From assembly GCA_963848965.1 (NCBI GenBank), contig CAWKFG010000005.1, forward strand, positions 64,686 through 128,685: a DNA stretch of 64,000 nucleotides. Direction: 5' to 3'. Every line of letters starts with the position of its first letter. The stretch's first letter is position 1. The notes beneath the pieces were generated by a model, which saw only the letters and a program-made list of their open reading frames with translations, had not been told where the DNA came from and did not search any database. Shown piece after piece: positions 2 through 63,805 of this stretch. The DNA comes from an uncultured bacterium (GTDB taxonomy: Bacteria > Babelota > Babeliae > Babelales > Babelaceae). The position numbers and the translations under genes are program-made.

Positions 2-1096
2 TTGGGTAAAAAAGTCGAAAATGTAGTTAAAAATGTAAAAGACAATTATAAGGAAGTTGCAGTAGATGCAGAAGAACGTTACAAACGAATAGAGGCAAGC
101 TTGAAGTGGGCAGCTCTTATAACTGCTACAGTGACAGCAAGTGCCTGGTTTGGCTCACGCTTTTTCTGGAATAGTGTTGAGCGCTATTTTACACAGCCAG
201 AGTTGGTTACAGAGTCATCTTATAAAAATGTGTGGGAACAAGTAACAAATTATTTTTGGCCACAACCGTTAGTATTTAGAGAAATGATTTTCTCTAAAGA
301 GGTTAAGCGAGAATTAGATAATGTTGTTGCAATTACAAAGCATGTTGCACAAGAAAATCAAAAGAACAATCATGCGCAGGTGCGCTATCTTAATGTTCTT
401 TTGTGGGGTCCTCCTGGAACTGGTAAGACCATGTTTGCAAAAGAACTTGCTAAAAAATCAGGACTTGATTATGCAATTACCAGTGGTGCATCATTTTCAA
501 AATTTGATATTGCAGGAGGAATTGCTGCTATCGATAGGCTCTTTAATTGGGCAGAAAAAAGTAAGAAAGGGCTTATCATCTTTATTGATGAAGCAGAAGC
601 CTTTTTAGCAGAACGGGATAGAACGAAGGTTAAAGAAGAAAATCAGCTTGTTACTCATTTTTTAAGCCGTACTGGTGAAGGGAGCAGTAAATTTATGCTT
701 ATTTTTGCTACGAATAAGCCTGAAGTGCTTGATGAAGCAATACGCCGTCGTACACAACGGTCAATAGAGCTGGGTTTACCTGCAAAACCAGAAGCTGCTA
801 AAATATTGCGTTTGTATCGAGATAAAATATTACTTGATAAAGAGCATAATATTCCTGAGCTTATAGACTCAGTAAAAGTAAACTTGAGCGATGAAGCAAT
901 TGAACAGTTAGCAGAAAAACTGAAAGGACTTGCTGCAAGTGAGCTTGAAGATTTTATTAATGACGTAAAAGTTAATGCCGATATCACTGATAATCGCACA
1001 GTAACCAAAGATGTTATTGATTATGTTATAGACTTATCGCGCAGAAAACATGACGAATTTGTAAGTCATTTCCATCATGCTGCTCCAGCAGCATAA
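2..1096 (+). CDS. ATAD3-like membrane-anchored AAA+ ATPase, 5' end outside the window; catalytic motifs intact
   Basis: TM segment WAALITATVTASAWFG, Walker A GPPGTGKT, Walker B IIFIDEAE, sensor-1 ATNKP. Segments SGLDYAI, LFNWAEKSKKGL and FLSRTGEGSSKFML match eukaryotic ATAD3 as recalled. Confidence 0.85.
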   Translation: MGKKVENVVKNVKDNYKEVAVDAEERYKRIEASLKWAALITATVTASAWFGSRFFWNSVERYFTQPELVTESSYKNVWEQVTNYFWPQPLVFREMIFSKEVKRELDNVVAITKHVAQENQKNNHAQVRYLNVLLWGPPGTGKTMFAKELAKKSGLDYAITSGASFSKFDIAGGIAAIDRLFNWAEKSKKGLIIFIDEAEAFLAERDRTKVKEENQLVTHFLSRTGEGSSKFMLIFATNKPEVLDEAIRRRTQRSIELGLPAKPEAAKILRLYRDKILLDKEHNIPELIDSVKVNLSDEAIEQLAEKLKGLAASELEDFINDVKVNADITDNRTVTKDVIDYVIDLSRRKHDEFVSHFHHAAPAA

Positions 1097-1103
1097 AGAA
1101 TTG

Positions 1104-1130
1104 GGCCCTGGAAATACCAGGGCCTTTTTT
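1104..1130 (+). terminator. Rho-independent terminator
   Basis: GGCCCTGG-aaata-CCAGGGCC followed by T6. Confidence 0.85.
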
Positions 1131-1196
1131 AATGCTTGTCTAAACTATTGATTCTCTTTCATTATCCTTACTATATTTTTCATATAAGGGGGCTTT

Positions 1197-1802
1197 ATGA
1201 AAAGAATACGGATACACAGTTTTATGTGTATATTTTTGGTACATACATTGAGAGCTGAAATAGTTGTACGACCTGCTGCAATGGCAGATGTTCCAGAAGT
1301 ATTAGAACTTGATAGGCACGTTACCTATGAGTATTTTAAGCCTTTATATGTAAAAGCATATCCACATTTACCATTAGGACAAGATCCAGACCGCTTTCTT
1401 GAACCCGAGTTACAGCAAGATGAGAAAACGTTCTATGACTGTGTAAAAAATCCTGGTAATACACGCTTACATATAGCGTATGATAGTAACAGTAAACGTA
1501 TAGGAGGATTGATTGTTTTTCATAAAGAACATGAAGATACAATAGAATTGGATCTTTTGCTTGTTGACAAAGACTATCGTAAAATGGGAATAGGCAGAAA
1601 GCTTGTATATAATGCTGTTGCTACGTTTAAATACATAAAAACATGTATTGTATATCCTGTACGACATAAAAATGATGCTACACTCAAATTTTACCAGTCA
1701 CTTGGATTTAAGAATCTCGGTGTATGTCCTTTAGATAAAATGAATCCCTATGGTATAAAGTACTCTGATATGTATTTTTATTTTAGGCTTGACGTTATAT
1801 AG
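1197..1802 (+). CDS. GNAT acetyltransferase with probable signal peptide
   Basis: Motif A LLVDKDYRKMGIGRKL; N..A.KFYQSLGF; hydrophobic N-terminus. Confidence 0.85.
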   Translation: MKRIRIHSFMCIFLVHTLRAEIVVRPAAMADVPEVLELDRHVTYEYFKPLYVKAYPHLPLGQDPDRFLEPELQQDEKTFYDCVKNPGNTRLHIAYDSNSKRIGGLIVFHKEHEDTIELDLLLVDKDYRKMGIGRKLVYNAVATFKYIKTCIVYPVRHKNDATLKFYQSLGFKNLGVCPLDKMNPYGIKYSDMYFYFRLDVI

Positions 1803-2034
1803 GAAAATGAAGCAGAAGGCATTGCTACCGCTCTCTATTTGTAGCCAGTTAGCTCTTAAAGTATGTACAGGCATATCTTTTATTGATTGCTTTTCTTTAG
1901 TTACTTGTCATAATAGTAAAGATACTTTCAACAAAAATTTACATATTGACACAAATACAAAAGCTGCTATCTTGAATTAGAATATATTGTAAAATAATCT
2001 TTAGTGCTATTTCACTTAAGTAAGCAGGAAGTCT

Positions 2035-4443
2035 ATGCATACAATCTTCACTATTCTTTTAAAAAGCTTAACTTTCTCTCTACTCGGTATTTCATGTGCT
2101 CTTAGTATGGAGAAAGAAGGCTCCATTCATCAAAAATTACTTACTGCTTGTGAAAACGGTAAGCAAGAAGAAGTCCTTGGGTTATTAGAACAAGGAGCTG
2201 ATATTAATACTCTTGATAGCGATGCCCCCTTAACATTCGCCCTATACCATAAACATTCTTCACTTGCTCACATGCTTATTGAAAAAGGAGCAGACATCAA
2301 CCTTCCAACTTCCGGGCATGCTTTTAGCCCTCTTATGGTAGCAGCAATAGCAGGCATGCAAGATATAGTACGTTTACTTATTGAGTTACGAGCACAAATA
2401 AATGTACAAAGCTCAGAAGGTACAACTGCATTAATGTATGCCCTGATGTATGGCAATCTAGAAATAGCTCAAATGTTGTTAGACGCGGGCGCAGACATAC
2501 ATCTTAAAAATAAGAAAGGGAATAATGCCCTTACTCATGCAGTTGATTACGCATTTATGTTACTTAATCAATTAACTCTTAAAGAACGTAACGCATTAGT
2601 AGAAAAGCACAATTCACTCAAACAACGGCTTTATATTCTCAAAGCTCAAGATGCTTCGCCCGAACTCTATAAAGCCTACATCTCCTTTATAGATACTTTA
2701 CTTTCTTTGAAGATAGAAATGCAATCTCGAGAGGTACAAAAGCTCTTTTGCATAGCGCTAGCAGGAAACAATCTTCCTATTATTAAAACAATAATTGAAA
2801 CTCCAAAGCTTTTTTCCCAACTAGGAGATCTGTCTTATCTTTACTTCATTCCGGTAATAAAAAATCGATATACAGATATAGTAGACTATCTTATTGGATA
2901 CAAAGCATGTATGCCAACTTTACTGTTCGCAGCTGTCCATGAAAGAGATGAAAACCTAGTAATAAGGCTCTTACAAGCAAAAGTAGACATTAATGATACT
3001 TTATTACTAGCTATAGATCGAAATGACAAGAAACTTGTAACGTTACTTCTTGAAAACAATGCTAACTTGAGTGCATCAAATAATCCAGATGAGCCCCCAC
3101 CCCTTATACATGCTACATTTAAAGGTTATAAAGAAATTACAGAAATTCTCTTAGCACATAGAGCATCTTTAGAAACACAGTGGACGAAATCAGGTCGTAC
3201 CGCTCTTATTTATGCTGTTAGAGAAGGACATGTCGCTCTTGTGCAACTGCTTTTAGATGCGGGTGCTAATCCTAATGTTCAAGATAACTCTGGATTTTGG
3301 CCTCTTACATATGCAGCAAAGCATGGAAATGATAGTATTGTACAAGCTCTGCTTAACGCCGGAGCATCCGTTGACGCACAATCTGGTAATGATAAAAGAA
3401 CTCCTTTATTGTGGTGTAATCATCATACAACGGCTCGATTACTTCTTAAAGCCGGAGCCAATGTTAATGCTCTAAATGCATATAAAGAATCACCACTAAT
3501 AGAAGCCATACGTTATGTAAATCCTTCATTAGAGCTCATAAATCTTTTAATCGAATATGGCGTAGATATACATCATGGAGGAGAAGCACCCTTACGGTGG
3601 GCCCTTATGCTGGATGAGATCGAAATAGCTAAGTTGCTTCTGGAAAAAAAGGCCAATCTTGACAGCGCATTTTTTTATGCCGCTAAGCTTCAAGGCCTTA
3701 TTCTTATGGCAAAATTAGTAAGTCTTGGAGCAGATATATCTACCTATGGTGAGCAAATATTTGAATCAGCACAAGAGAATAATCAGTTTGAAGCTTTGCG
3801 CTTTCTTGAAATTCTTGAGCAACCAGAGTTGTATACGTACCTTAAAGATACCTCTAGGGGTATACCCTATTTAAGAACTTGTAATGGACATGCAGAAGGC
3901 TGGCTCAAGTCAGTAACTTCTATGTTCACACCTTCAAGCACTGCAGCAAGCACATGCTTTCATCAAACAAAACTGATGTGGGCTGTTATGTTTGGCCATA
4001 CTGAAGTTGTTAAATCTATACTTAAACGGCAGCAATCTTACCAAAACAAAGAAGATCAGCATAAATTCCGTTGTTATTTAAATGCTCAAGATAAATACGG
4101 TCGCACTGCGCTTATGTACGCTATCATATTTGATGAATCAAAAATATATCCTTTACCATATCAAGCAGAAATACTATCTTTGCTTCTAGAAGCTTATAAA
4201 AACCTTCCAAACTCAGAGCGTAATGCTATTAATATATCTGATATGCAAGGCAACTCTGCTCTTGCATATGCAGTTAAGCAAAAAAATCTCCCTCTTATTA
4301 CGCACTTGTTAGAAATAGGAGCACGACCTACTATAAAATTACTCAAAGATGCAGCAAAGCAAGGACAACATACTATTCTTGCAAAACTACTTTTCTTTGT
4401 ACTTAGGGATTCTCAAGGGTTAAGATATCCTGCTATTTTGTAA
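2035..4443 (+). CDS. Ankyrin-repeat protein, putative secreted effector
   Basis: Many ANK repeats (GTTALMYA, GRTALIYAV, GFWPLTYAA, LLxxGAxxN); signal peptide ending CALS-ME. Confidence 0.92.
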   Translation: MHTIFTILLKSLTFSLLGISCALSMEKEGSIHQKLLTACENGKQEEVLGLLEQGADINTLDSDAPLTFALYHKHSSLAHMLIEKGADINLPTSGHAFSPLMVAAIAGMQDIVRLLIELRAQINVQSSEGTTALMYALMYGNLEIAQMLLDAGADIHLKNKKGNNALTHAVDYAFMLLNQLTLKERNALVEKHNSLKQRLYILKAQDASPELYKAYISFIDTLLSLKIEMQSREVQKLFCIALAGNNLPIIKTIIETPKLFSQLGDLSYLYFIPVIKNRYTDIVDYLIGYKACMPTLLFAAVHERDENLVIRLLQAKVDINDTLLLAIDRNDKKLVTLLLENNANLSASNNPDEPPPLIHATFKGYKEITEILLAHRASLETQWTKSGRTALIYAVREGHVALVQLLLDAGANPNVQDNSGFWPLTYAAKHGNDSIVQALLNAGASVDAQSGNDKRTPLLWCNHHTTARLLLKAGANVNALNAYKESPLIEAIRYVNPSLELINLLIEYGVDIHHGGEAPLRWALMLDEIEIAKLLLEKKANLDSAFFYAAKLQGLILMAKLVSLGADISTYGEQIFESAQENNQFEALRFLEILEQPELYTYLKDTSRGIPYLRTCNGHAEGWLKSVTSMFTPSSTAASTCFHQTKLMWAVMFGHTEVVKSILKRQQSYQNKEDQHKFRCYLNAQDKYGRTALMYAIIFDESKIYPLPYQAEILSLLLEAYKNLPNSERNAINISDMQGNSALAYAVKQKNLPLITHLLEIGARPTIKLLKDAAKQGQHTILAKLLFFVLRDSQGLRYPAIL

Positions 4444-4457
4444 TACGATAAGCAGTA

Positions 4458-6143
4458 TTACTCTTTTATATTAGATAACATCTTAAGGTATATTCTTTTG
4501 CCCTCAACAGCAATACCATAAGCAAAGATTTGATTAAGACCTCGAGCATGAAGTTCTTGCATATACTGTTTCTCAAGAATTTGATCAATGGCTTTTTGCG
4601 CAGCAATTTCAAGAGTTTCACTAGCAAGAGTCTTCTTAAACTCAATAACTATAGCTGGTTTATTATGCTGCTTTGGTATAAGCATTATATCATAACGACC
4701 AAATCCGCTTTTTTTATTTGATTTAACTTCATACTGATCATGAAGCATAACAAGAAGTCCCAAAACAAAAAGATGATAGCTTTTCTCAGGCTCATTGCTC
4801 GATACATCAAAGAAACTCATACTGTTTAGTATAAAACCTTGCAATAATTCAGCAAAGGATTCAGCCTCCCCTTGGGTAAGAGTTTCAAGCAGATCTTTTA
4901 CCTGACCACCAACAACCGATTCTTGGAAAATATTTCTAATAAGCTCTGAGTAAAGATGCTTTATTTCTTGATTTGGGATCGTAAGAGAGCATATTTTTGT
5001 TCCCTCTTTAAGTTCCCAGTGAGTATATGTCAAATAACCGGTAAATAATAAAAGACTCCACAAAAGCTCGGTGCGGTGATCTAAATCTGGAAATATAATC
5101 GATTCTTGAATTGCTTGATCTACAGATTTATCTTCAAGCAAAAGTTCAAGATCTGATTTCACAGACTTAGGTGCTCGGGCTATAAGCTTTTTTACAAGCG
5201 CGTTATCGCTAGTGTTTGCCCAATACTTTTCCAATAAACCTCTATTTTGAACACATTTTAGCACCGACCAAGGGTTAAAAATACCTTTAACTTCACCAAA
5301 GGTATACCCATCATACCACTCTTGAATTTTTTTAGCATCATCTTGAATACCATAATACTGTAACAGCGTATGAACCTCTTCATACGTAAAACCAAATTTA
5401 TCTGCCATAACAAAACGCGTAAGACTAAATACATCAAGGTTATTAAGCCCTGTAAATATCCCCGCTTTTGCAAGAGTTAAAATACCAGTAATAACCCCTT
5501 TTTCAAGAATATCACTATCTTTAAACACCGCAGTCAAGAGTCCTCTTGCAAACTCAATAGCTTGATCATAAAATCCATTAATATAAGCCGATTGTATAGG
5601 GGTATCATATTCATCAATAAGGATAATAACCTTCTTATTGTATCTTCTATAAAGAAGCTGTGCTAAAAAATGAAGACTATCTTCAAGCTCTGCTTTGGAA
5701 GCAGTTCCTTCAAGAATTCGTTTATACCTATCTTTTTCGTGGTTTTTTAAAGAATCGTGAAAAAGTATTTCCTGATGTCGTGCATATTCTTCATAAATAA
5801 CCAAAGCAAATTTATCATATGTTACATCCCAGGTTGCTTCTTTAATATTCTTAAATGTAACAAATATGACAGGAAATTGTCCTTGAAGAACACGTTGTTC
5901 AGGATAGCTCCAAATAGCTTTATCTTGAAAAAGATGAGCATTGCTTTCTTCGCTTGCTTCAAAAAAGTATTTAAGCATAGATAAGTTGAGCGTTTTACCA
6001 AAGCGTCGAGGACGAGGAGCAAGTATAATCTGACCATGTTCTAAGATATCTTTTATTAAAAGAGTCTTATCAACATAGTAATAGTTATTCTCAATAAGAG
6101 TTTTAAAGTTACTGATACCGATAGGTAATAATTTCTGTGTCAT
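4458..6143 (-). CDS. AAA-ATPase-like + PD-(D/E)XK nuclease (PDDEXK_9 type) protein
   Basis: LPIGISNF, YVDKT, PRPRRFGKT, IDEYDTP, C-terminal GRYD...IEFK; start placed at MTQKLLPIG. Confidence 0.9.
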   Translation of the reverse strand: MTQKLLPIGISNFKTLIENNYYYVDKTLLIKDILEHGQIILAPRPRRFGKTLNLSMLKYFFEASEESNAHLFQDKAIWSYPEQRVLQGQFPVIFVTFKNIKEATWDVTYDKFALVIYEEYARHQEILFHDSLKNHEKDRYKRILEGTASKAELEDSLHFLAQLLYRRYNKKVIILIDEYDTPIQSAYINGFYDQAIEFARGLLTAVFKDSDILEKGVITGILTLAKAGIFTGLNNLDVFSLTRFVMADKFGFTYEEVHTLLQYYGIQDDAKKIQEWYDGYTFGEVKGIFNPWSVLKCVQNRGLLEKYWANTSDNALVKKLIARAPKSVKSDLELLLEDKSVDQAIQESIIFPDLDHRTELLWSLLLFTGYLTYTHWELKEGTKICSLTIPNQEIKHLYSELIRNIFQESVVGGQVKDLLETLTQGEAESFAELLQGFILNSMSFFDVSSNEPEKSYHLFVLGLLVMLHDQYEVKSNKKSGFGRYDIMLIPKQHNKPAIVIEFKKTLASETLEIAAQKAIDQILEKQYMQELHARGLNQIFAYGIAVEGKRIYLKMLSNIKE

Positions 6144-6473
6144 CAATTGCCTCAAAGCATGAGGGAAAGCGTTAATCACAGTATAGTACCCCTTATGCAA
6201 AATTGCAATGCCCCTTGCTTTTACCAAAATAAGCTTACACATGAAAGTTAGCTGGAATATAGTATCAATATTTGATGCCAATGTTAGGAAGAAGAGACTT
6301 TTGTGTTATTGAAACTCTTTGCATTTTCTTTAAACATTTGAAATTTAGCTTTTCTTAGATTCTGCTCTTACATGAGCATTTTATGCCGAACACTTAGGCA
6401 TTTTTCATATAAAAGTTTACCAGGTATACTAGGTAAGAATAGCAGAATGCTATTGTTATTGAGGAGAATTTTT

Positions 6474-7925
6474 ATGAGTTTAAGAATATTATTTTTGTGC
6501 GCACTAACCCTTTCTGTAGGTTCGTATACCTACAGTATGCAATGGGCTAAAGACAAGCTTGGCAAAGCGATAGGTGAGGTAGGTGCAGGAGCAACGAAAG
6601 CATATCTTGAGGATAACAAAACTCATGAGGCTTTTCATACGCATATTGTACAACCTGCTGTTGATAAGATGAATGAAGTGAAAGACCATGCAAAAAAAGC
6701 TGCAGAAGAGATGGTAGAAAATGCCAAGAAGGCAAGCGAAAAAATGAAACAAGAGCTTGAAGAACAAGCAAAAAAAGCAAATGAGGAATTTAAGAAAAAT
6801 ACACACGAAGCTACAGATAAGTTTAAAGAGAGCATATTAAAACCAACAGTTGATGAAGCTCATAAGTTTAAAGATGCAACTGTTAAAGAGGCTGATAGAC
6901 TCTTTGATAGGCTTTCTGAAACTATAAAGACAGGAGCATTATGGACAGTTGGCGGTGCTGCTGCTATATTTTCGATATGGTATGCTTATAAATTTTTATG
7001 GAACCATGTTGAAAAAGCATTGCACAAACCAGCCATTCCTTTACGCTCGGCACATCCGGGTTTTTTTGGTCGTATTAAGAACTTCTTTAGCAGTTCAGAA
7101 AGCTTTACACCTCGTCCACTATTTTTTGCTCCTGAGCTTAAAGACAGGTTACAAGGTATTTTAGATATAGCACTTGATACTGCACGTCGAATTCAAGCAG
7201 GAGATAAAACTGCAACTTATAGTAATCTTTTACTATGGGGCCCTTCAGGTACTGGAAAGCGATCATACGCACAGCAGCTTACTCGTGAGTTAGCACAAGC
7301 TGCAAATATGGACTATGTTTTCCTTGATGGTGCTTTCTTTGCTCCTGTAAAGAATGGTACACCGCTTGAAAGAATAGATACGCTTTTTGAGAAAGTACAA
7401 AATAACTCGCGAAATACTATCATATTTATTGATCAGGCGAAGTTCTTGCTTTCAAAACATCATACTACTGATGTTATTATGGAACGATTCTTAAAATATG
7501 CAAAAGAACATAGTAATAAGTATATGATCATCTTCACGACAGCTCCTATACACATTGCAGAAGAAGTAAAAGGAATAATAGGAGATTCAGTAGAAATTGG
7601 ATTACCTGAATTACCTCAAATAATTGATATACTCAAACATTATCGAGATACATTATTAATTAATAATACAGCTAATCCAAGCTCTTTAGTAGAGTCTGCA
7701 CAAAAAACGCTTGTCGATGAATCAATAGAGAGTTTAGCACAAGAGCTCAAAGGATTCTCTTGTAGAGACCTTGAAAATATTATTAAGGCAATTCAAGATA
7801 AAGCTCGTCGCCAAGATTGTATAATATCTACTGCTGTTGTTAAAGCTGCAGTTGCAGAAGCTACTAAGAAATATCAAGACTTTAAGACGAATCTTCCCCA
7901 TCAGTATGCAGCACAAACTGCATAA
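6474..7925 (+). CDS. ATAD3-like AAA+ paralog 2, with signal peptide, coiled coil, TM and altered Walker motifs
   Basis: RBS GAGGAG at 6461; Walker A GPSGTGKRS, Walker B IIFIDQAK; colinear with ORF 2..1096. Confidence 0.8.
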   Translation: MSLRILFLCALTLSVGSYTYSMQWAKDKLGKAIGEVGAGATKAYLEDNKTHEAFHTHIVQPAVDKMNEVKDHAKKAAEEMVENAKKASEKMKQELEEQAKKANEEFKKNTHEATDKFKESILKPTVDEAHKFKDATVKEADRLFDRLSETIKTGALWTVGGAAAIFSIWYAYKFLWNHVEKALHKPAIPLRSAHPGFFGRIKNFFSSSESFTPRPLFFAPELKDRLQGILDIALDTARRIQAGDKTATYSNLLLWGPSGTGKRSYAQQLTRELAQAANMDYVFLDGAFFAPVKNGTPLERIDTLFEKVQNNSRNTIIFIDQAKFLLSKHHTTDVIMERFLKYAKEHSNKYMIIFTTAPIHIAEEVKGIIGDSVEIGLPELPQIIDILKHYRDTLLINNTANPSSLVESAQKTLVDESIESLAQELKGFSCRDLENIIKAIQDKARRQDCIISTAVVKAAVAEATKKYQDFKTNLPHQYAAQTA

Positions 7926-7934
7926 AGAACTCAT

Positions 7935-7962
7935 AAGCCTCCGGTAAAATGGAGGCTTTTTT
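7935..7962 (+). terminator. Rho-independent terminator
   Basis: AAGCCTCC-ggtaaaat-GGAGGCTT followed by T tract. Confidence 0.8.
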
Positions 7963-8025
7963 CATACAGAGCTTTTACTTTTGCTCTCTTATTACGGTAT
8001 GCTATAAAAAAGGGGGGGAGAGAGC

Positions 8026-8742
8026 ATGCTTGTCGTATTACTAAGCTTTTTTTATGAGTTTGTGCGCTTGTGTTTAACTAGTAAAGTGTTTGCTCTTATA
8101 GTTCTAGGAGCAGTATGTCTACAGTTTTTTACTAATACTTTTGAAAAAGTATATAATAAGCCAGTTCCTCCTGCAGCAATGCTATTACACGCTCCAGCTG
8201 TTTCTCACTCTATAGCTCCTTTGGCATCTCCTGTTTTACAATCGCAGTCTATTCCATTTATAGGTGCTCTCTATGCTTTTGTAAGACAAGGAATGAATTT
8301 TCATGCGCCTGCTTCATCTACAGATGGTGTTCCGCCTTCAGGAGCTATCCCAACTTCTTCTGATAGCGATAAAAAAGATCCTCGTTGGATTTTAGAGAGT
8401 AAAAATACTGTTTTTTTGGGAACAAGCATTACAGCAGGACTTATTGCTTTGTGGGCTGCAGGTAACTACTTACTTCCTGAGTCTCAACACGAAAAGCAAC
8501 CAGTAAGAACACAAGATATGAAGCAAGCTATGCTAGAAAAGCTCCAACATACTGTTACTGTTTTTAACCCAGAAGTAAAGATTTCTGACAGAGAGCTTGA
8601 GCAGCTTTCTACGTTCCTTTTGCATATGCAGCAACAGACCAAGAAACAAAGTATCTCTATCCGTTGTAAAAATTTTATTCAAGCATGGACTAAATACTTT
8701 ATTGCTCGCTATACCCAACACAAAACTTTGCTTTCTTTATAG
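8026..8742 (+). CDS. Membrane protein, possibly an internally deleted ATAD3-like paralog
   Basis: Two hydrophobic segments; VFLGTSITAGLIALWAAGNYLL and ISDRELEQLS resemble the TM and C-terminal helix of neighbouring paralogs. Confidence 0.55.
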   Translation: MLVVLLSFFYEFVRLCLTSKVFALIVLGAVCLQFFTNTFEKVYNKPVPPAAMLLHAPAVSHSIAPLASPVLQSQSIPFIGALYAFVRQGMNFHAPASSTDGVPPSGAIPTSSDSDKKDPRWILESKNTVFLGTSITAGLIALWAAGNYLLPESQHEKQPVRTQDMKQAMLEKLQHTVTVFNPEVKISDRELEQLSTFLLHMQQQTKKQSISIRCKNFIQAWTKYFIARYTQHKTLLSL

Positions 8743-8819
8743 ATATTTTCTATCCTCTGTGGTAAAGAAGAATATATACTTTAAAAAACGTATATCATCT
8801 ATAGAGAAGAGAGAAAACT

Positions 8820-10331
8820 ATGCAGGTTGAGATGTTAATGTTAGCAGGGTCTATAACCTTTATAGCGTGGGCTTTACTGTATCATTTTAATGAGATACTA
8901 TTCTGGAGTGCGCTTGGTCTTTTTGGTGCTGCAGGAACAGTCAGGGTTCATAATTACTTGAATCAGACTGTAAAAGTAGAACAAGGTGCTGCTCCTACCT
9001 CTAGACAGCGTGTTGCTTTACTTGTTAAACATTATGTAAATTCTGTTGTAACTGTTGTAGGTCCTCCTGTAGAGCGTGTTGCTAATTCTGTAGTGGCTAC
9101 TCAAACAGGGCAAGTGTGCTTGCGTATGTGGCAACGTATAAAAAGTTATATACCCTTAAGATTTCTAGCAGCATCAGTATTAGGCGCAGCTCCGAGAGTC
9201 AATGCTGCAGTACCCGGTAATAGAGAGGGAGTGGCAGTTAACATAGCAGAAGAAAGTGGTAGATTTGGTGCCCAAGCTGCTGATAGCTTTATACATAATG
9301 TTATGCAAGCACCACATGTACGTGAAGTTATAGATAGCTTACGACAAGCTGTTGGTGATGGCAGACCACTTGGAGAAGCTGTAAAGAAAATGGCAGAGCC
9401 TATTGCTGAAGAGATAGGCAAAGGTCTGGAAGAAGCTGAAACAAAGATGGAACAAAAGGCTGCAGCTGTAAAAGGAGAATTTAAAGGTGCAATTTTTTGG
9501 GGCACTACTCTTTTAGTAGGGGCAATGGGTGCCTGGTTTTTATTAAAACATCTTCTTGCAAAGCCAAATCAGGATCAAAACAAATCACGCATCCGAGTTC
9601 CAGAATTTGAAAAAAGGCCTATAGAACGACTACGTTCATTATATACAAGAAGCTCTCATACTTCACCAGAATTGTTCTTTGAGTCTTCATTACAAGAACA
9701 TCTAAATGCTGTTAAAGAACTTATTATTTCGGTAAGGAAGAAAAAATACGAAGAAACTGTAGACTGTTCTTATCCTCGAGTGCTGTTGTATGGGCCGCAA
9801 GGAACTGGTAAGCGGTCATTTGCTCAAAGTGTTGCACAAGCTGCTGGTATGAGCTTTATACCTGTTACAGGATCAGCATTCTTTGCTTTTAAAGGAACAG
9901 ATGCATTTAAAGCTGTAGATACCTTATTTGATGAAATTAAACAAAATACAAAGGGTGCAGTACTGTTTATAGAACAAGCAGAACTGTTGCTATCTCAACC
10001 TAAGGATGAGCAACCTACTGATGATCGTGCAGTTTTTATAGCATATTTTGCAGAGCAGATAAAAGATATAAGTAAACTATGCCCTATAGTGTTTGCTCTA
10101 GAGGAGCTTCCTCATCCTTTGCATAAAATATCTAAGGGCTGCATTACTCATCAAATATCATTTACTTTACCAACTGTTAAAGAGCGACTGAGAGTACTTA
10201 AACTTTTTAACACTAGGCTGCAAGAATCACAAAAGAATGTGCTGAATGATCAAGAGATTGAAGCTCTTGCTCATGATCTTGAAGGAGCTACGTATGTAGA
10301 TCTTCAAAAAGCACTTGTAGGCGTTTACTAG
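8820..10331 (+). CDS. ATAD3-like AAA+ paralog 3, degenerate
   Basis: TM IFWGTTLLVGAMGAWFLL; Walker A GPQGTGKRS; Walker B VLFIEQAE; lid helix LNDQEIEALAHDLEG. Confidence 0.78.
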   Translation: MQVEMLMLAGSITFIAWALLYHFNEILFWSALGLFGAAGTVRVHNYLNQTVKVEQGAAPTSRQRVALLVKHYVNSVVTVVGPPVERVANSVVATQTGQVCLRMWQRIKSYIPLRFLAASVLGAAPRVNAAVPGNREGVAVNIAEESGRFGAQAADSFIHNVMQAPHVREVIDSLRQAVGDGRPLGEAVKKMAEPIAEEIGKGLEEAETKMEQKAAAVKGEFKGAIFWGTTLLVGAMGAWFLLKHLLAKPNQDQNKSRIRVPEFEKRPIERLRSLYTRSSHTSPELFFESSLQEHLNAVKELIISVRKKKYEETVDCSYPRVLLYGPQGTGKRSFAQSVAQAAGMSFIPVTGSAFFAFKGTDAFKAVDTLFDEIKQNTKGAVLFIEQAELLLSQPKDEQPTDDRAVFIAYFAEQIKDISKLCPIVFALEELPHPLHKISKGCITHQISFTLPTVKERLRVLKLFNTRLQESQKNVLNDQEIEALAHDLEGATYVDLQKALVGVY

Positions 10332-10394: not shown

Positions 10395-12239
10395 TTGTGG
10401 ATCATAGTTCTTTTTTTTACCATTACTTTCTTTGCTGAATCTGCTGTACAGTGGACTCAGGATGCGAGTACTTATGAGTTTTCTGTCTATTTTCAACCAG
10501 AAGCAGTGTATGCAAAGAATATCTATTGGTTGAATAATGAAGCATGTGACGAAGTATTATATGCACGCCATTACCTTGACCTTCAATCACTATATACGTA
10601 TCGCGAAGATGTAATGAAAGCTAAGGCTGTCGTACGTTCTCGCACGATCTGGGGTCATACACCAGAAGCACTATGCACAAGTAGGGTCCCTGTTAAAGAG
10701 TTTGGCATAACTTTTGGAGGACATAAGCATGGGCTCTGGTTGAGTGAAGTATGGATACGCGAGCTATGGCTTGAAGGTAGTCTAAACGATTTTTTAGGAT
10801 TGCCTTTTTGCAATCGACATATACTTACTATTGGTGCTTTTTCTTTTGAATTAGGCAGAGGTATCTCATTAGGCTCTGCATATCCGAATTTCCCTCTTTT
10901 AGTAGGTGTGGATATTGATAGTGCAATTGATCAATATGCATTTGGAGCAAAACTGTCAGGAGAACTCTCTAAAAATCATCTTTGGTATGATATTTATGGA
11001 GCTATTTTTAGAGAACGAGCACTTGATATAACTGATGATGATCTTTTTGAGCGAGCTTGTGATCGCGGTACCTATGGTTATAAAGCCCATCCGTTTGAAA
11101 GAACTTTGCACTGTGGACTTCGTGATTTTGCTGTTGCAGCACGACTGAGGTGGGAACCGCTTGATAAAGATGAGAAAAAAAAGGTATATTTTGAACCTTA
11201 TGTGCTCGCGTATCATGCTCCTGACCTAAAAATAGAATTTTCTCATGAAGGGAAAAGTACTTTAGTAACACTGGGGCTTGCTGGAGAGTATACGTTTAAA
11301 AATGTTGAATGTGGTTTTGAGTGGGCTTTTAATAGAGGAGGTCAAGAGGTATTTGGTCTTGATAGAAATAAGCTTATTATGCATGACGATAACGGCGTTC
11401 TTCAAGTAGTTAATGACCAAGTAGTTGTCAGCAGTATAGATCATGATGCTTTAGCGACTCCAAAAAATGAGAAACTTATTCGTTTGTCACCTGCTTGTCA
11501 AAGTAAGAACGGGAAACCACTTTCATCTACTTTAAAGAATAAGCCTTTTAGATTCCAAGATCCTTATTGTGTTCAGTATAGAGGCTTTTTTTTCGTTGCA
11601 GATCTGAGTTTTATTCTTTTAAAAGATACGTGTAAAGTGAGTTGTACCTGGGGCTATGCATCTGGTGATAATGATGTGCATAAAAGGATACTAAAGGAAC
11701 ATATATTAGAAGACTGTAAAAAAGTTGTAGATTTTACAGGGTTTGTAAGCGTTAACGAAACCTATGTTGGCAAGCGGGTGCTGAGTGCACTTTTTCTTAA
11801 TGGTGTTGGTGTTTTTCCTCGTCCTATCACCTTTGGCTCTGTTATAGATTCTTCTGCTTCTTTAGTAGGAGGTTTTACCAACTTAGTGCTTGCCGGTTTT
11901 TCTACCGATTTATGGTATAAATTAGAGCCACATCGATGGCATATTAACCCTAATGTACTCTTTTTTTGGCAAGACCATTCTCCTTGCTGGAAAGACAAAA
12001 AAGTTCCTTCTTACTTAGGAGTGGAGCTCAATTGTATAACTGAGATGCAGCTTTTTAAGGATTTTTCTTTCTATGCTATAGGGTCTGTATTTGTGCCAGG
12101 CTCTTGTTATAAGTTTCTTACAGGAGTGCCTCTTAGCAGTGAACAGGTAGAGAGTTTTGAAGAGCATAAGGTATCTCATGGCTTTCTTGGGCATGATCCT
12201 GCATACCTTATTAACTTTGGATTGAAATATACGTTTTAA
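10395..12239 (+). CDS. Putative outer-membrane beta-barrel protein
   Basis: Signal peptide, aromatic-rich amphipathic strands, C-terminal Phe motif INFGLKYTF. Confidence 0.65.
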   Translation: MWIIVLFFTITFFAESAVQWTQDASTYEFSVYFQPEAVYAKNIYWLNNEACDEVLYARHYLDLQSLYTYREDVMKAKAVVRSRTIWGHTPEALCTSRVPVKEFGITFGGHKHGLWLSEVWIRELWLEGSLNDFLGLPFCNRHILTIGAFSFELGRGISLGSAYPNFPLLVGVDIDSAIDQYAFGAKLSGELSKNHLWYDIYGAIFRERALDITDDDLFERACDRGTYGYKAHPFERTLHCGLRDFAVAARLRWEPLDKDEKKKVYFEPYVLAYHAPDLKIEFSHEGKSTLVTLGLAGEYTFKNVECGFEWAFNRGGQEVFGLDRNKLIMHDDNGVLQVVNDQVVVSSIDHDALATPKNEKLIRLSPACQSKNGKPLSSTLKNKPFRFQDPYCVQYRGFFFVADLSFILLKDTCKVSCTWGYASGDNDVHKRILKEHILEDCKKVVDFTGFVSVNETYVGKRVLSALFLNGVGVFPRPITFGSVIDSSASLVGGFTNLVLAGFSTDLWYKLEPHRWHINPNVLFFWQDHSPCWKDKKVPSYLGVELNCITEMQLFKDFSFYAIGSVFVPGSCYKFLTGVPLSSEQVESFEEHKVSHGFLGHDPAYLINFGLKYTF

Positions 12240-12875: not shown

Positions 12876-13562
12876 ATGATTGTATTTTTTTGTTTAATGA
12901 TAGTTATAGAACTGGGTCTTGCTAGTAATGTAGTTGCAATGGAACAAGATGTGCAAAACGTTGATACACAACCTTTTCAAACAGCCTTGGCTCAAAAAGA
13001 TTTTACTAGACTGTATGCTACTCTTGACGCATATCCTCAACTACGGCAAGAATATTGGAGAAATTTAATGCAGAGACAAGTTGACACCCCTGTTAACAAA
13101 GAGGATGTAGATGCTCTAAACGTAGAACAGCTTGAAAGATTAGATCGTGAATTGAAGCCGCTGTTAAATCTTATAGCAAGACTCTATGCTTTTGTTGATG
13201 AAGACCAAAAAAGAATTGAGGCAGCAACTTGGACCGGCAAGGATAAGATCTTACTACAAGGAGGTTCAAAAATTGTACCTCTTATTGTAATGTACTCTGC
13301 TTATGTAGCTTATAATTATAGTAATATGAATATAGTATTTTTAGGGTGCATGTTAAGTGTAGAAGCTCTTCTTTTATGTGTTCTTTATGGTGTTATATGT
13401 GACACGTATGTCCCTCGATTACCGCACGATTTTGAATATTCTAAATTGAAAGATATGCTTAAGAGTGCGCAAACTAAAGTAGGGACATTAAATGGATGGG
13501 TTAGCACTGCGCTTGTACAAAAAAAATATGTTAATGGATTCATAAATTTACCAACTGCCTGA
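12876..13562 (+). CDS. Hypothetical protein with signal peptide and two TM segments
   Basis: AGGAG RBS; VVA-ME motif; hydrophobic hairpin. Confidence 0.7.
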   Translation: MIVFFCLMIVIELGLASNVVAMEQDVQNVDTQPFQTALAQKDFTRLYATLDAYPQLRQEYWRNLMQRQVDTPVNKEDVDALNVEQLERLDRELKPLLNLIARLYAFVDEDQKRIEAATWTGKDKILLQGGSKIVPLIVMYSAYVAYNYSNMNIVFLGCMLSVEALLLCVLYGVICDTYVPRLPHDFEYSKLKDMLKSAQTKVGTLNGWVSTALVQKKYVNGFINLPTA

Positions 13563-13626: not shown

Positions 13627-15390
13627 ATGGAACATTTTGAACGAACGATTGGCTGTGGTGAGATTACACAGCATTTTTTAGGTAAAGTAGTAACGCTTAA
13701 TGGATGGGTACATCGCAGACGTGATCATGGAGGGCTTATCTTTGTTGATCTTCGTGATCGTAGCGGGATAATGCAGGTGGTATTCAGTAAAGATATTTCT
13801 GTTCAATCACAAGAGCTTGCTCAGCAACTTCGATCAGAATTTGTTGTATCAGTACGCGGAAAGGTAGTTGAGCGTGCTTCAGGAACAATAAATACCGAAA
13901 TTCCCACGGGCCGTTATGAGCTTCAAGCTCAAGAGCTTTCTATATTAAATAAGGCAAAGGCTCTTCCTTTTTCGCTTGAACATGCTGATGAGGTTGATGA
14001 AGAGATGCGGCTTAAGTATCGTTACTTAGACTTAAGACGACCTGTTATGCAAGAGCGTATAAAAATGCGCCACAACATTATTTTTGCTATGCGTGAGTTT
14101 TTGGTGCGTGAAGGATTTTATGAAATTGAGACGCCGATACTCACTAAAAATACTGCTGAAGGAGCGCGTGAATTTTTAGTACCATCACGATTACATAAAG
14201 GTTCATTTTATGCCCTTCCTCAATCGCCACAGCTTTATAAGCAGATTCTTATGTGTGCTGGCATGGAAAGGTATTTTCAGGTGGCACGCTGCTTTAGAGA
14301 TGAAGATCTTCGTGCAGACAGGCAGCCTGAGTTTACACAGCTTGATATGGAGATGTCTTTTAGTACGGAGAAGGATATTCAAGGAGTTACTGAGCGGCTG
14401 CTTGCTCATATCTTTAAAAGTATTTTTAATAAAGAAATACAGTTACCTTTACGCCGTATGACGTATGATGAAGCATTCAGCACATATGGTTCAGATAAAC
14501 CAGATTTACGATTTGCTCTTGCCATACACGATGTAAGTGCTCTATTTGAAGATACGCAACTTTCCTTTTTACGTGCAGCTCTCGATAAGGGAGGAAAGAT
14601 AGGAGCTTTAATAGTCAAAGAGCATGCTTTTACGCGCTCTGAGCTAGAGCATTGGGTAGATCAAGCGCTTAAAAATGGTGCTAAAGGGCTTGTGTGGATA
14701 AAGTTTAAAGAAAATGGTGAGTTTGAAGCTCCTATTGCACGTTTCTTGCCACAAGATTTTTATGCACGTATGCGTGCTCTTGTACCAGATCTGGCTCCAG
14801 GAGATACGGCATTTCTTGTTGCAGGTCCTTATAAAGAAAGTTGGGCACAACTTGGTAAGTTGCGTTTGCAGCTTGGAGCTGCTTTACATCTTATACCTCA
14901 AGATGCTCTTGAATTGCTTTGGGTAACGGATTTTCCTTTGCTTGAATATGATGAAGGACGATGGACTTCAGTACATCATCCCTTTACTTCTCCACAACCA
15001 GGGTGGGAACAGCAGGATCCTGCTCAGATAAAAGCTCGAGCATACGATATTGTATTTAATGGTGTTGAGCTTGGAGGAGGTTCTATTCGTATTCATAATC
15101 CTGAAATACAACGTAAGATTTTTGACTTTTTAGGATTAAAGAGAGAAGAAATGGAAGCTCATTTTGGCTTTTTACTTGAAGCGCAAGAATTAGGTTTTCC
15201 TCCTCATGGAGGTATAGCGCTTGGTATAGATCGTTTTGTCATGCTGCTTCTTCATTGTGCTTCTATTCGCGATGTTATAGCATTTCCAAAAACACAAAGT
15301 GGTGCAGATCCTATGATGCAAGCACCAACACCAGTAGATGAAAAAAAATTGGCAGAGTATGGTATTAAAGTTGTTGTAGAAAAGGCATAA
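13627..15390 (+). CDS. aspS: Aspartate--tRNA ligase, probably non-discriminating (Asp/Asn)
   Basis: RRRDHGGLIFVDLRD, ALPQSPQLYKQ, FRDEDLRADRQPEFTQLD, PPHGGIALG; His in RDHGG is typical of ND-AspRS, and gatB is nearby. Confidence 0.97.
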   Translation: MEHFERTIGCGEITQHFLGKVVTLNGWVHRRRDHGGLIFVDLRDRSGIMQVVFSKDISVQSQELAQQLRSEFVVSVRGKVVERASGTINTEIPTGRYELQAQELSILNKAKALPFSLEHADEVDEEMRLKYRYLDLRRPVMQERIKMRHNIIFAMREFLVREGFYEIETPILTKNTAEGAREFLVPSRLHKGSFYALPQSPQLYKQILMCAGMERYFQVARCFRDEDLRADRQPEFTQLDMEMSFSTEKDIQGVTERLLAHIFKSIFNKEIQLPLRRMTYDEAFSTYGSDKPDLRFALAIHDVSALFEDTQLSFLRAALDKGGKIGALIVKEHAFTRSELEHWVDQALKNGAKGLVWIKFKENGEFEAPIARFLPQDFYARMRALVPDLAPGDTAFLVAGPYKESWAQLGKLRLQLGAALHLIPQDALELLWVTDFPLLEYDEGRWTSVHHPFTSPQPGWEQQDPAQIKARAYDIVFNGVELGGGSIRIHNPEIQRKIFDFLGLKREEMEAHFGFLLEAQELGFPPHGGIALGIDRFVMLLLHCASIRDVIAFPKTQSGADPMMQAPTPVDEKKLAEYGIKVVVEKA

Positions 15391-57131: not shown

Positions 57132-58129
57132 CACGTTCGGCAGGTATGGCATGCCCGGCGTATTGCCGGAAAAGACGTGGATGTCGGAGATCGTGTCCGG
57201 CCCGCAGCCGCCCGCGATCGCCACCTCCGCCACCGTGAAATCAAAACTGCCGCCGCCATGCCCGACGTCGAACATCACGCCGCGCTGCTTGGCGGCAAGC
57301 GCTGCCGGCAGCAGCTTGCCATCCTGCACGATGTTGGTGAAGACGCCGCCGATGTTCGGCGCGCCGGAATAGGCATGGGTCAATACGTCGCCGGGCCGCA
57401 GCAGATCGAGAATCTCCGACATCAACTCCCTGGTCTCGACGCCGCCGATATGCACCATCATCTTGGCCGGCCAGCCGCACATCTCGCAGGCTTTTATCGC
57501 TCGCTTCAGCGGTTCGAGGCCATGCTTGGCAATGACGTTCTCCGACATCCGGACTTTGACGCCGAGCAGGAAATCCGGATTCTCGGCCAGCGCCATGGCG
57601 CAGGCGTCGATTTGCGCGTGGTCGATGTTGTAGAGTTCGGCGACCGGGAAGCCCGACAAGCCGTTATTGGCGATATGGACGAAGGCGTAAATCCGTGCCC
57701 GCGATTGCGCCACGATGTAGCGGCGCAGCGCCGCGATATTGTTGACGCCGGCGTCGCCCGCCGAAACGACCGTGGTGGTGGCCTGCGCCTGCACCAATTC
57801 GTCGGCGGGAATACCGATCGCTGAGCCATAGGGGTAGACGTGGGAATGCAGGTCGATCAGGCCCGGCGTCACCAGTCGGCCCGCAGCGTCGATGGTCCTC
57901 GCGGCGCGCGCCGCCGGAATTTCGTCCTCCACCGCCTCGATCACACCCCAGCGAATGCCGATATCACGTTTTCCCCGGAGCGACTGGCTCGGGTCGAGCA
58001 CGTCGCCGCCCTTGATCACGAGGTCGAACTTGTCGTTCGGACCCATCGCGGCATTGGCGGGGCGGACATCGCAGCGACCGCGGCCGATCCAGACACGCTC
58101 AGAAAATCACGGCGTGAAAACCCGCTCAT
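57132..58129 (-). CDS. Amidohydrolase (dihydroorotase/deacetylase-like) with Tat signal; frameshifted and 3'-truncated
   Basis: SRRDFL Tat leader in a different frame from PGLIDLHSH, MVHIG, GDVLTH, FDVGHG; ends at PYLPNV. Confidence 0.85.
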
Positions 58130-58441
58130 GGCATCGCTCCCCCATATGATTTTTATGGCGCGATGATGCGCCGGGCACAGGCTTAACGCAAGCGGGCGTG
58201 CATCGCCCACGCAAAGTCAATGCCGGGCGGCCGGCGGTCCGTCGGGGCACGCGGTAACGCAGCGAATCAAGTCCGACCGCGGAGGTGATGGTATAGCTGG
58301 GCTCAACCCGTGCACGGAAAGCCAAACGCACGGCATCCGCAACCTAGTGGCTGAACAGACATTCAGAATTCTCTTCAAGTTTCGTCGGAACGTTCCCGGC
58401 GATGCGCTGTTCTATCCTCGCTCAATTGAGGAGGACAAGTA

Positions 58442-58670
58442 ATGAAGAAGTTTGGATAAGTTTTCGCTGCGCTTGGCGCGATCATCATCGGGCGCCGTCG
58501 ATTGCAAGCGCACAGACTGTCGTGATCAAGCGTGGCGGCGTTATCATGGGCATCATCACCATCATGGTGCACGCGCCGAATACGCGGGCATCGTGACCGC
58601 GGCTACCATCGCGGATCGCGGTCACGGTCACCACAACAAGGTCGTGATCATCAAGAAGCATCGTTACTGA
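58442..58670 (+). CDS. Small His-rich secreted protein, frameshifted
   Basis: MKKFG..., SIASAQTVVIKRGG, HGHHHHHGARAE, KVVIIKKHRY spread across frames. Confidence 0.6.
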
Positions 58671-58690
58671 GGCCGACTTAGGCCTCAACG

Positions 58691-58720
58691 GAAAATGGCT
58701 CCTCGCGGAGCCATTTTCTT
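58691..58720. terminator. Terminator hairpin
   Basis: GAAAATGGCTCC-tcgc-GGAGCCATTTTC. Confidence 0.8.
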
Positions 58721-58754
58721 TGTTGCCATCCGCTGTCGCTGATAGCGCGAAAGC

Positions 58755-59927
<1,173 letters not shown>

Positions 59928-60026
59928 TTTCTAGACCTCCCTTTGATGCGACCCAGTATGGACTGGACCTCAGCCCGTGTGTAGCAAAAACCCGAATTCC
60001 GGCGGACGGAAAAGGAGGAATCGCCT

Positions 60027-60858: not shown

Positions 60859-61145
60859 TGATGCTCCAGGCGAAAAAAGTCCCGCGGGGAAGACGAAAGC
60901 CGCATGGACGGCATTTCATTGAGTGGGATAGGTCGCTATTGAATAGACTGCCCGACAGGGCGCTGGGCAAATCAAGATCAGGTCAGGGGCGATGGGCAAC
61001 GCGTTGCAACGATGGCTGGATACCCATCAATTGCCGGCGATCACCGCCGCCGTGCTCGGCGTGGTCATGACGATTTCGGTGCTGATCGTGCTGATCGGTT
61101 ATCTCGTGACGAGGCCCTGAGCCGACTTGATGCGGCGCATGACCC

Positions 61146-62140: not shown

Positions 62141-62162
62141 CCTTAGCTCTGCGCCGTCACAT

Positions 62163-63170: not shown

Positions 63171-63204
63171 GACTTTGCCCCCTCCCAGGGCGGAACTGGC
63201 TATC

Positions 63205-63613: not shown

Positions 63614-63805
63614 GGCGGGGCTCCGGTTGGGAGGGACAGGCGAATTGTGCGCCACCGCTGCGCCTCCTTCAAGAATTATTGCGCAACTTCCAGATGCGAC
63701 TTTGCGCCCTGCTCGCCGCAGGGCGGTGAAACCTATCCAGACTATGCGGCGCGAACATGGAAGGTTACGAGGGATTCCGTGCCGACGATCCCGCGATCGA
63801 AGGCG

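Follow-up and report, generated by a model that had tools for sequence, protein, structure and literature searches.

The window analysed here, a stretch of 64,000 nucleotides, forms the final 64 kb of contig C5 in the genome of an uncultured bacterium of the phylum Dependentiae (assembly GCA_963848965.1; 1.73 Mb in five contigs, 88.7% complete). Near its start lie three genes for AAA proteins, P1, P2 and P3, which an initial annotation of the sequence had taken for paralogs resembling ATAD3, the mitochondrial inner-membrane AAA ATPase found at contact sites between inner and outer membranes. All three are on the forward strand. P1 enters the window as an open frame (2..1096) coding for the last 364 of 663 amino acids (aa), which hold the membrane helix, the linker, the AAA module and an alanine-rich tail; the full gene (L001:604-2595) starts about 0.9 kb ahead of the window. 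P2 occupies 6474..7925, in an open reading frame (ORF) that is open from 6372, and the methionine at 6474 begins a segment resembling a signal peptide. P3 occupies 8820..10331. The ORFs of the first 15 kb of the window were tabulated and their products scanned with Pfam, which found the AAA domain in all three (E values 1.9e-25, 7.8e-09 and 1.6e-11 for P1, P2 and P3, respectively). With P1 as query against its own genome, P2 was matched at 3.2e-47 and P3 at 5.3e-19, and these values, together with the ORF list, agree with the annotation of three paralogs at these positions. A fourth paralog, P4 (518 aa; contig C4, L003:1450-3006), was matched at 1.7e-33, and the next AAA gene followed at 6.7e-16.

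The four proteins have a layout in common, in which a signal peptide is followed by long helices, a single membrane helix and a AAA module. For P4 an AlphaFold model was computed from an alignment of 68 rows (mean predicted local distance difference test score, pLDDT, 86.4). It has an N-terminal signal helix, helices at residues 33-76 and 80-166, a helix at 168-202 that we read as the probable membrane anchor, and the AAA module at 217-506. Among bacterial relatives, all but a few begin with a segment resembling a signal peptide.

The architecture of the three copies thus stood as annotated, but the annotation had missed the fourth copy and also the catalytic state of the proteins. P1 and P4 have an intact Walker A (GKT), Walker B (DEA), sensor-1 asparagine and set of arginine residues. 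P2 reads GKR at Walker A and IDQ at Walker B, P3 reads GKR and IEQ, and both have lost the sensor-1 asparagine and the arginine finger; P3 also stops short of the final lid helices. Judged by these motifs, P1 and P4 would be catalytically competent, and P2 and P3 dead. Nine of ten degenerate copies, P2 and P3 among them, fall into one clade (support 99 in the Shimodaira-Hasegawa-like approximate likelihood ratio test, SH-aLRT), which argues that the dead paralog is old and retained rather than a decaying copy. The tenth is a recent duplicate of a neighbouring active gene.

The ends of the proteins have a peculiarity of their own. P1, P2 and P4 terminate in alanine-rich tails (1076..1093 in P1, 7905..7922 in P2), scored as three or more alanines within the last six residues. 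Such a tail is present in 20 of 75 bacterial members, across three clades, and in 0 of 20 eukaryotic ATAD3 rows; in the genome of the window it occurs in 9 of 1002 ORFs of at least 200 aa. By analogy, it recalls the ssrA-type degrons.

Domain libraries saw only the generic AAA domain in the paralogs, both with Pfam and with NCBIfam. NCBIfam scores were far under the cut-offs of the individual families (71 of 600 bits for FtsH, 73 of 803 for CDC48, 72 of 500 for PAN, 21 of 423 for SpoVK), and no M41 protease domain was found by Pfam in P1-P4. The closest solved structures were Rix7, Afg2 and p97, with Rix7 at 44 and 70 bits per domain, and a fold search with the P4 model gave generic classic AAA structures (Rix7, p97, FtsH). 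No ATAD3 entry was among the results of the two PDB searches, by sequence and by fold. Because no ATAD3 structure came up there, these searches could not point to ATAD3.

Searches of sequence collections were more telling. A word-indexed search with the P1 fragment found 389 proteins at E ≤ 1e-10. Its top matches, from E-109 to about E-55, were unnamed proteins or AAA ATPases of Dependentiae, Babeliales and Chromulinivorax, and from about E-45 it reached proteins with Pfam ATAD3_N plus AAA. With P4 as query, phmmer searched all of 1.84 billion representatives and found 386 proteins at E ≤ 1e-30. The Pfam scan of these matches covered 63 of the 150 listed, namely those from P0185 onward with one or two matched stretches; the rest were higher-ranked single-AAA matches and 27 proteins with three to six stretches (780 to 2124 aa). 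Among the matches listed, ATAD3_N was present in 0 of the 17 scanned before P0211 and in 29 of the 46 from P0211 on. Other family-specific domains in the 63 amounted to one MYRF_ICA, with no protease and no Cdc48_N. Beyond the Dependentiae relatives, the single-AAA matches are mostly eukaryotic ATAD3. P4 scored about 160-182 bits against the proteins carrying ATAD3_N, and the named members of the clusters with strong ATAD3_N come from Solanum, Macleaya, Trichinella, Phytophthora, a millipede and a marine protist transcript (MMETSP). The reverse query gave the same picture: a protist ATAD3 (P0218) matched P4 at 2.9e-51 over residues 122-568 and P1 at 3.4e-36. In a protein atlas, which relies on a different method, six of the ten nearest clusters shown were eukaryotic ones with ATAD3_N. 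It also showed two nearby bacterial clusters labelled Bdellovibrionota and Chlamydiota, labels that could not be confirmed.

Automatic names from the Joint Genome Institute already label some members ATAD3A/B, so the likeness itself is visible in databases. A locus search with patterns derived from one of our alignments (A1) was of less use and was set aside: 601 stretches were found, 550 passed a tblastn check and 80 loci were kept, but it returned only ordinary AAA genes that matched the generic Walker A and B; some of these served as outgroups in the trees.

A tree of the AAA module was built from 95 family rows and 35 outgroup domains over 269 columns (IQ-TREE quick search, posterior mean site frequency model). 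Of the family rows, 4 came from the genome of the window, 43 were Dependentiae-like, 30 were intermediate and 18 had strong ATAD3_N. As outgroups we used FtsH-like, PAN-like and Cdc48 D1 and D2 domains, together with AAA genes of named genomes and the other AAA genes of the genome of the window. These outgroup labels go by length and tree position, and the rows of the tree were chosen without SpoVK sequences. All 95 family rows form one clade apart from the outgroups, with SH-aLRT 100 and a stem of 1.21 changes per site. Within it, eukaryotic ATAD3 is one clade of support 100, made of the 18 rows plus P0211. The bacterial rows fall into a P4 clade (30 rows, support 96), a clade with P1, P2 and P3 (15 rows, support 100) and a third group (27 rows, support 81), and rows P0220, P0221, P0238 and P0244 sit near the base of the family. 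P2 and P3 are sisters (SH-aLRT 99) on long branches (2.0 for P3). A 64-row subset tree agrees (family 100, eukaryotes 99), and in both trees FtsH-like, Cdc48 and PAN-like domains remain outside the family clade.

Several proteins of uncertain affinity were noted in these trees. Two paralogous large AAA proteins of the same genome (G000:C4:141321-141956 and G000:C5:27250-27885, both outside the window, in frames of 1177 and 1085 aa) branch between the FtsH-like and the ATAD3-like domains, as does a 756-aa AAA protein (G000:C1:93472-93981). The nearest single outgroup is a 388-aa archaeal AAA protein, L050, from a metagenome-assembled genome (MAG) of Hodarchaeota by its title. Its placement received SH-aLRT 85-89 in the 64-row tree and 99 in a 59-row tree, on a branch of 1.2-1.3, and may be due to long-branch attraction.

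The clade is also marked by shared traits, compared by alignment column between 93 family rows (all but P2 and P3) and the 35 outgroup rows. Family members lack the aromatic pore loop 1 and read DEA[DE]A where outgroups have DEIDA, and GFSGREI where outgroups have G.SGADL. They also have a FL.RTG..S..F stretch and an insert of about 18 residues ahead of the lid, both absent from the outgroups. A further stretch, LF-WA..S.kGL, is common to the paralogs and eukaryotic ATAD3 and absent from the 35 outgroup AAA domains. P1 and P4 bear the family traits, with substitutions in GFSGREI, and P2 and P3 only in part. Upstream of the module, a membrane helix rich in glycine and alanine and the linker motif PxLVRE[ST]S align between P1, P4, their Dependentiae relatives and six eukaryotic ATAD3 proteins, so that homology reaches beyond the AAA module; neither occurs in the 35 outgroup AAA domains. 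The initial annotation had compared P1 with human ATAD3; the motifs it considered specific to ATAD3 were recovered here against Solanum, Macleaya, Trichinella and marine protist proteins instead. Best matches and the two trees likewise bore out its claim of kinship with ATAD3 over the FtsH, proteasomal, Cdc48 and SpoVK-type families, and the placement among generic bacterial AAA families, which it had set beforehand as the outcome that would speak against it, was not seen.

The distribution of the family was measured with P4 as query, scoring the five best candidates per genome: 76 of the 261 genomes of the phylum matched at E ≤ 1e-30. By family code, matches were found in 30 of 35 genomes of f17, 11 of 12 of f18, 14 of 40 of f1, to which the window belongs, and 10 of 80 of f21. 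Tandem copies are common across the phylum, and the names of the nearest relatives together with these matches confirmed that the host belongs to the Dependentiae/Babeliales, which the annotation had described as a protist parasite. Family members lie on long contigs amid housekeeping genes, which indicates a real bacterial gene family. A probe of the genome collection with F[IV]DEA[DE]AFL, which detects one motif variant only, gave 68 stretches, 13 of them coding for family members (202-333 bits with the family profile); 11 of the 13 were tied to Dependentiae and the other two come from genomes of 0.9 and 1.1 Mb. Some members are found in MAGs titled Epsilonproteobacteria or Pseudomonadota (P0116, L209, L218, L226 and others), but their match coordinates are those of genomes in the phylum set, and the public titles look outdated. 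Elsewhere, the protist ATAD3 query had no match at E ≤ 1e-20 in 401 sampled genomes from the class of a MAG titled Alphaproteobacteria, and in 301 sampled genomes from the phylum of the Hodarchaeota MAG it gave only matches to the AAA core near 1e-21, in 9 of the 301.

The genomic surroundings of P1 were compared with ten related loci, fetched from the family of the window by likeness to P2. In all ten, as in the genome of the window, the order is an upstream border gene that we read as endonuclease IV (nfo), a gene of 640-775 aa, one or more ATPase genes, and aspS, whose homologs downstream in 10 of 10 loci form a conserved border. In the window this place is held by a gene at 13627..15390 (forward strand), which we take from its sequence to be aspartyl-tRNA synthetase (aspS). 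An active copy is followed by a degenerate one in seven of the ten loci; a degenerate copy stands alone in one and an active copy alone in two. Walker A of the degenerate copies reads GKR or GKQ, or in one locus GKS, and their Walker B is lost. The two ATPase genes adjoin or lie up to about 0.8 kb apart, and three loci (L171, L174, L175) have between them an ORF of 124-227 aa. This is the position, in the window, of a 238-aa ORF between P2 and P3 (8026..8742, forward strand) with hydrophobic N-terminal segments and no Pfam or NCBIfam match; the idea that it might be a copy of the P4 partner described below was rejected, the likeness being insignificant (E 0.40).

Between P1 and P2 the window holds three genes identified by Pfam: a GNAT acetyltransferase (1197..1802, forward strand), an ankyrin-repeat protein of 802 aa (2035..4443, forward strand) and, on the reverse strand, a 607-aa protein with AAA-ATPase_like (PF09820) and PD-(D/E)XK (PF08011) domains (4458..6281). 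None of the GNAT, ankyrin or PD-(D/E)XK genes is present in the P1-P2 interval of the ten related loci, and they do not belong to the conserved module. By this comparison, the module in this genome appears to be stretched by their insertion and by a second dead copy.

The gene directly upstream of the ATPase codes for a barrel in the ten related loci and in the genome of the window, and a second barrel copy lies downstream in four of the ten and in the window. This downstream copy (10395..12239, forward strand) codes for an AlgE-like outer-membrane barrel protein of 614 aa, paralogous to the 709-aa gene directly upstream of P1 (32% identity, E 1e-25). Its naming relies on the fold, as the barrel gene has no Pfam family match. 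The AlphaFold model (pLDDT 66.7) consists mostly of long strands, about 25-30, and in Foldseek its best match was AlgE (E 8.1e-16, TM-score 0.67 on the target), followed by MOMP, OprP/OprO and OmpF. The protein ends in G-L-x-Y-x-F, and 16 of 16 members end in an aromatic residue (Y/F) after G-x-x-Y/F. The product of 10395..12239 combines the signal peptide, the beta-barrel fold and the C-terminal aromatic beta-signal of outer-membrane barrels.

P4-type neighbourhoods were compared in 20 fetched stretches plus the genome of the window. Directly ahead of the ATPase, 12 of these 21 have a gene of about 360-580 aa (16 pairs in all), and in three stretches both genes of the pair have been duplicated together. 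The partner protein, which matches no Pfam family, has a signal peptide, a helical stretch rich in acidic residues, the conserved motifs QNTLL and GH, and a membrane helix at its C-terminus. In the genome of the window, three small membrane proteins come first, then the partner and P4, and after these a 92-aa acylphosphatase-like protein and a 969-aa protein of the Omp85/POTRA kind, which we read as BamA; BamA lies downstream of the ATPase in 7 of the 21. A complex prediction with P4 residues 25-215 and the partner scored 0.00, which is no verdict and carries no weight either way. Upstream of the partner-P4 operon there are tandem arrays of genes whose products, of 160-240 aa, bear a signal peptide and hydrophobic segments and match no Pfam family, in three to four copies in this genome (L142:12279-13437) and up to about ten in relatives (L145, L147, L148, L150).

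We consider it very probable that P1-P4 belong to the kin of ATAD3. Some findings weigh against this. Pfam ATAD3_N (PF12037) was unmatched in P1 and P4 at E ≤ 1 and in P2 and P3 at E ≤ 0.01, and it matches only 4 of the 62 bacterial rows of a second alignment, A2; in another set of matches, the relatives P0103, P0104, P0111 and P0115 have it. P1 and P4 have long helices where this domain would stand, judging from the P4 model. One could then suppose that the likeness is superficial, and that an ordinary membrane AAA protein, such as an FtsH-like protein without protease, a SpoVK/CbbX-like or a Cdc48-like one, has converged on the layout, as the purely generic Pfam and NCBIfam results and the ranking of Rix7, p97 and FtsH as top solved structures might suggest. 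That ranking comes, however, from searches in which no ATAD3 structure came up, and the bits reached by Rix7 are far fewer than those reached by the ATAD3_N-carrying proteins. Convergence would also leave the fully supported joint clade and its long stem to be accounted for, as well as derived motifs that extend into the membrane helix and the linker, and we hold it to be very improbable. We take the bacterial family to be the sister group of eukaryotic mitochondrial ATAD3, or possibly its stem group, and a relation to the origin of ATAD3, which the initial annotation had raised, is possible. The direction of transfer is a separate matter. An early ancestor of the Dependentiae may have received the gene from a eukaryotic host and then adapted it to the envelope and duplicated it, ATAD3 itself being a eukaryotic invention. 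The Dependentiae are obligate intracellular parasites of protists with other eukaryote-like genes, according to the accessible part of PMC4378268; all bacterial members of settled origin come from this one phylum, and no relatives were found among the genomes sampled from two further groups. Against a recent capture from a sampled host lineage stands the monophyly of eukaryotic ATAD3 (99-100), with no bacterial row inside it, and against any such transfer the depth of the bacterial radiation, whose three or more deep clades extend over many of the phylum's families. When the 37 bacterial rows were forced into one clade in the 64-row tree, a group that was named after the tree had been seen, the cost was 12.2 log-likelihood units (p 0.023 in the approximately unbiased test, p-AU). 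Basal row P0221 is genuinely from the Dependentiae: a genome of the phylum in a single contig (G109) has a gene 91% identical to it. However, after removal of P0220, P0221, P0238, P2 and one long outgroup (59 rows), a single bacterial clade sister to the eukaryotes cost 0.25 units (p-AU 0.49), so that the nesting of eukaryotes within the bacterial radiation hinges on three basal rows and on the placement of the long stem. To transfer from a eukaryote into the bacteria we give somewhat less than an even chance. It is possible, but in our judgement rather doubtful, that ATAD3 goes back to a trans-envelope machine that Dependentiae-like intracellular bacteria passed to the eukaryotic stem, or that a comparably early transfer ran the other way.

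As to function, the initial annotation had left two possibilities side by side, a bacterial envelope machine and effectors that mimic or disrupt host ATAD3. Our data lean to the former and away from the latter, on account of the signal peptide with its stop-transfer helix, the synteny with barrels and BamA, and the pairing of active and inactive copies. We think it somewhat probable that this is an inner-membrane AAA ATPase family, widespread in Dependentiae, whose members act as envelope machines; that the machine spans the envelope has about an even chance. A Sec-type signal peptide and one stop-transfer helix would keep the AAA module in the cytoplasm and place about 140 to 320 helical residues on the periplasmic side. 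The modules might then form a ring on the cytoplasmic face of the inner membrane, mixed from active and dead subunits in the P1 type, with helical stalks spanning the periplasm to outer-membrane barrels or BamA, and ATP turnover could maintain or remodel the link between the two membranes. Since the aromatic pore loop is missing, scaffolding or remodelling would be expected rather than the action of a substrate-threading unfoldase. Several points weigh against such a machine. We infer each of its elements, that is membrane location, ring, barrel contact and ATP-driven action. The N-terminus of P3 consists of two hydrophobic segments, untypical of a signal peptide, and the membrane helix is weakly hydrophobic, to the point that a Kyte-Doolittle scan at 1.6 missed that of P4. 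The confidence of the barrel model is moderate. The loci used for synteny were picked by likeness to P4 or P2 and come mostly from the window's family and its neighbours, which is not a random sample, and a gene order shared among relatives can be mere inheritance. Genes of the MotA/ExbB family (TolQ/ExbB-like, E 1.2e-32) and with TonB_C (E 8.4e-21) are present in the genome, so the family fills no obvious gap in envelope energisation, and we dropped the idea that it replaces Tol or TonB. Tandem expansion, dead copies and ankyrin neighbours are also typical of effector families, and at least one cultivated member of the phylum reorganises the host mitochondrion, as far as the accessible text of PMC6561590 goes. 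The proteins might accordingly be secreted, bind to or insert in host mitochondria, mimic or disturb ATAD3 and so aid the recruitment or reshaping of the organelle. Nearly all bacterial members have signal peptides, dead copies could serve as dominant negatives, and an ankyrin-repeat gene lies within the cluster of the window; Chromulinavorax destructans replicates wrapped in the host mitochondrion (same source, same part), and relative P0071 is named for a Chromulinivorax MAG. Yet the combination of a signal peptide and a single membrane helix after it marks a protein as retained in the inner membrane, with its AAA module in the cytoplasm, and no secretion-system signal or secretion genes were seen at the loci examined. 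The ankyrin gene was inserted in this genome alone, the surroundings are otherwise stable and of the housekeeping kind (nfo, aspS, bamA) with conserved partner genes and barrels, and no sampled host lineage stands nearer to the bacterial proteins than other eukaryotes do, the eukaryotic clade having support 99-100. A role as host-directed effectors is therefore unlikely.

The bacterial proteins share with eukaryotic ATAD3 the order of a helical N-terminus, the membrane helix, the linker and one classic AAA module, as well as the AAA clade and its traits, from the loss of the pore loop to the pre-lid insert. The topology proposed above would also correspond, the periplasm to the intermembrane space and the cytoplasm to the matrix (ATAD3 topology from the accessible part of PMC13249166). 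They differ in starting with a signal peptide that looks cleavable, where the eukaryotic proteins have their N-terminal region, in the ATAD3_N domain left unmatched in the four proteins of this genome, in the frequent alanine-rich tail and in the conserved, apparently dead paralogs, and their genes adjoin outer-membrane barrels, BamA and a partner gene. FtsH is likewise a membrane-anchored classic AAA module and ranks among the best fold matches, but P1-P4 lack the M41 protease domain and the aromatic pore loop, and FtsH-like domains lie outside the family clade. The chloroplast Ycf2-FtsHi motor, also membrane-anchored, pairs active with catalytically dead paralogs, as P1-type loci do. Export systems of the Wzc-Wza and AlgE type combine an inner-membrane P-loop protein, a periplasmic helical domain and a coupled outer-membrane channel. 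The proteins described here resemble them in the predicted inner-membrane nucleotide-binding protein, the putative long periplasmic helices, the adjoining channel gene and the fold of the barrel, for which AlgE was the best match; we mean this as a functional analogy and do not assert homology. Wzc is a BY-kinase, whereas P1-P4 have the classic AAA module; no polysaccharide synthesis genes were seen beside the module, and the sequence of the barrel matches no Pfam family.

ATAD3 is indispensable to animals, plants and apicomplexans alike, and mutations of it are found in human neurological disease. BamA is related to mitochondrial Sam50. A bacterial ATAD3 branch with partners of its own and a conserved subunit that is probably dead would be new. 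It offers a comparative handle on which features of ATAD3 are ancestral (the membrane helix, the linker and the AAA module without pore loop), candidates for its ancestral partners (outer-membrane barrels, BamA and the partner membrane protein), and, in P1-type loci, a natural pairing of active and dead subunits. It could serve as a bacterial model for a poorly understood mitochondrial machine, and it marks an undescribed envelope module in a phylum of almost unknown cell biology. If the ancestry of ATAD3 were bacterial, the contact-site ATPase would have begun as an ATP-driven ring in the inner membrane, with a periplasmic stalk, barrels and Omp85/BamA. The Dependentiae modules, barrel with active and dead ATPase on the one hand, partner with ATPase and BamA on the other, would then keep the ancestral partners of ATAD3 and open a tractable route to its mechanical role.

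The accessible parts of the published texts do not mention this branch. ATAD3 is described as present in animals, plants, algae and protists but absent from fungi (PMC3790746, PMC13249166, portions of both), and the words "bacteria" and "prokaryot" do not occur in the accessible part of PMC13249166. Within the same limits, the Babela paper (PMC4378268) mentions a different family, a AAA-Ulp1 fusion; "AAA" and "ATPase" do not occur in the Chromulinavorax paper (PMC6561590), "AAA" and "ATAD" do not occur in the TM6 comparative paper (PMC4776705), and "Dependentiae" and "ATAD" do not occur in PMC13468126. A full-text search of the literature, over main texts as far as accessible and with supplements, which may list such genes, outside its range, brought up no paper linking ATAD3 to Dependentiae or to bacteria.

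Two further features of the window were noted. Between the barrel gene and aspS there is a 228-aa ORF (12876..13562, forward strand) with no Pfam match and with hydrophobic segments at residues 2-20, which is signal-like, and 153-171; it may be part of the P1-type module. Near 57,200 the G+C content climbs from about 30-39% to 56-69% within 200 bases and stays high up to the end of the contig. The GC-rich segment (57200..64000) codes for a thiolase, an aldo/keto reductase, a TctC-type receptor, a GFO/IDH/MocA oxidoreductase and a fragment of an amidohydrolase, genes unlike those in the rest of the window, and is probably a chimeric contig end or foreign DNA.

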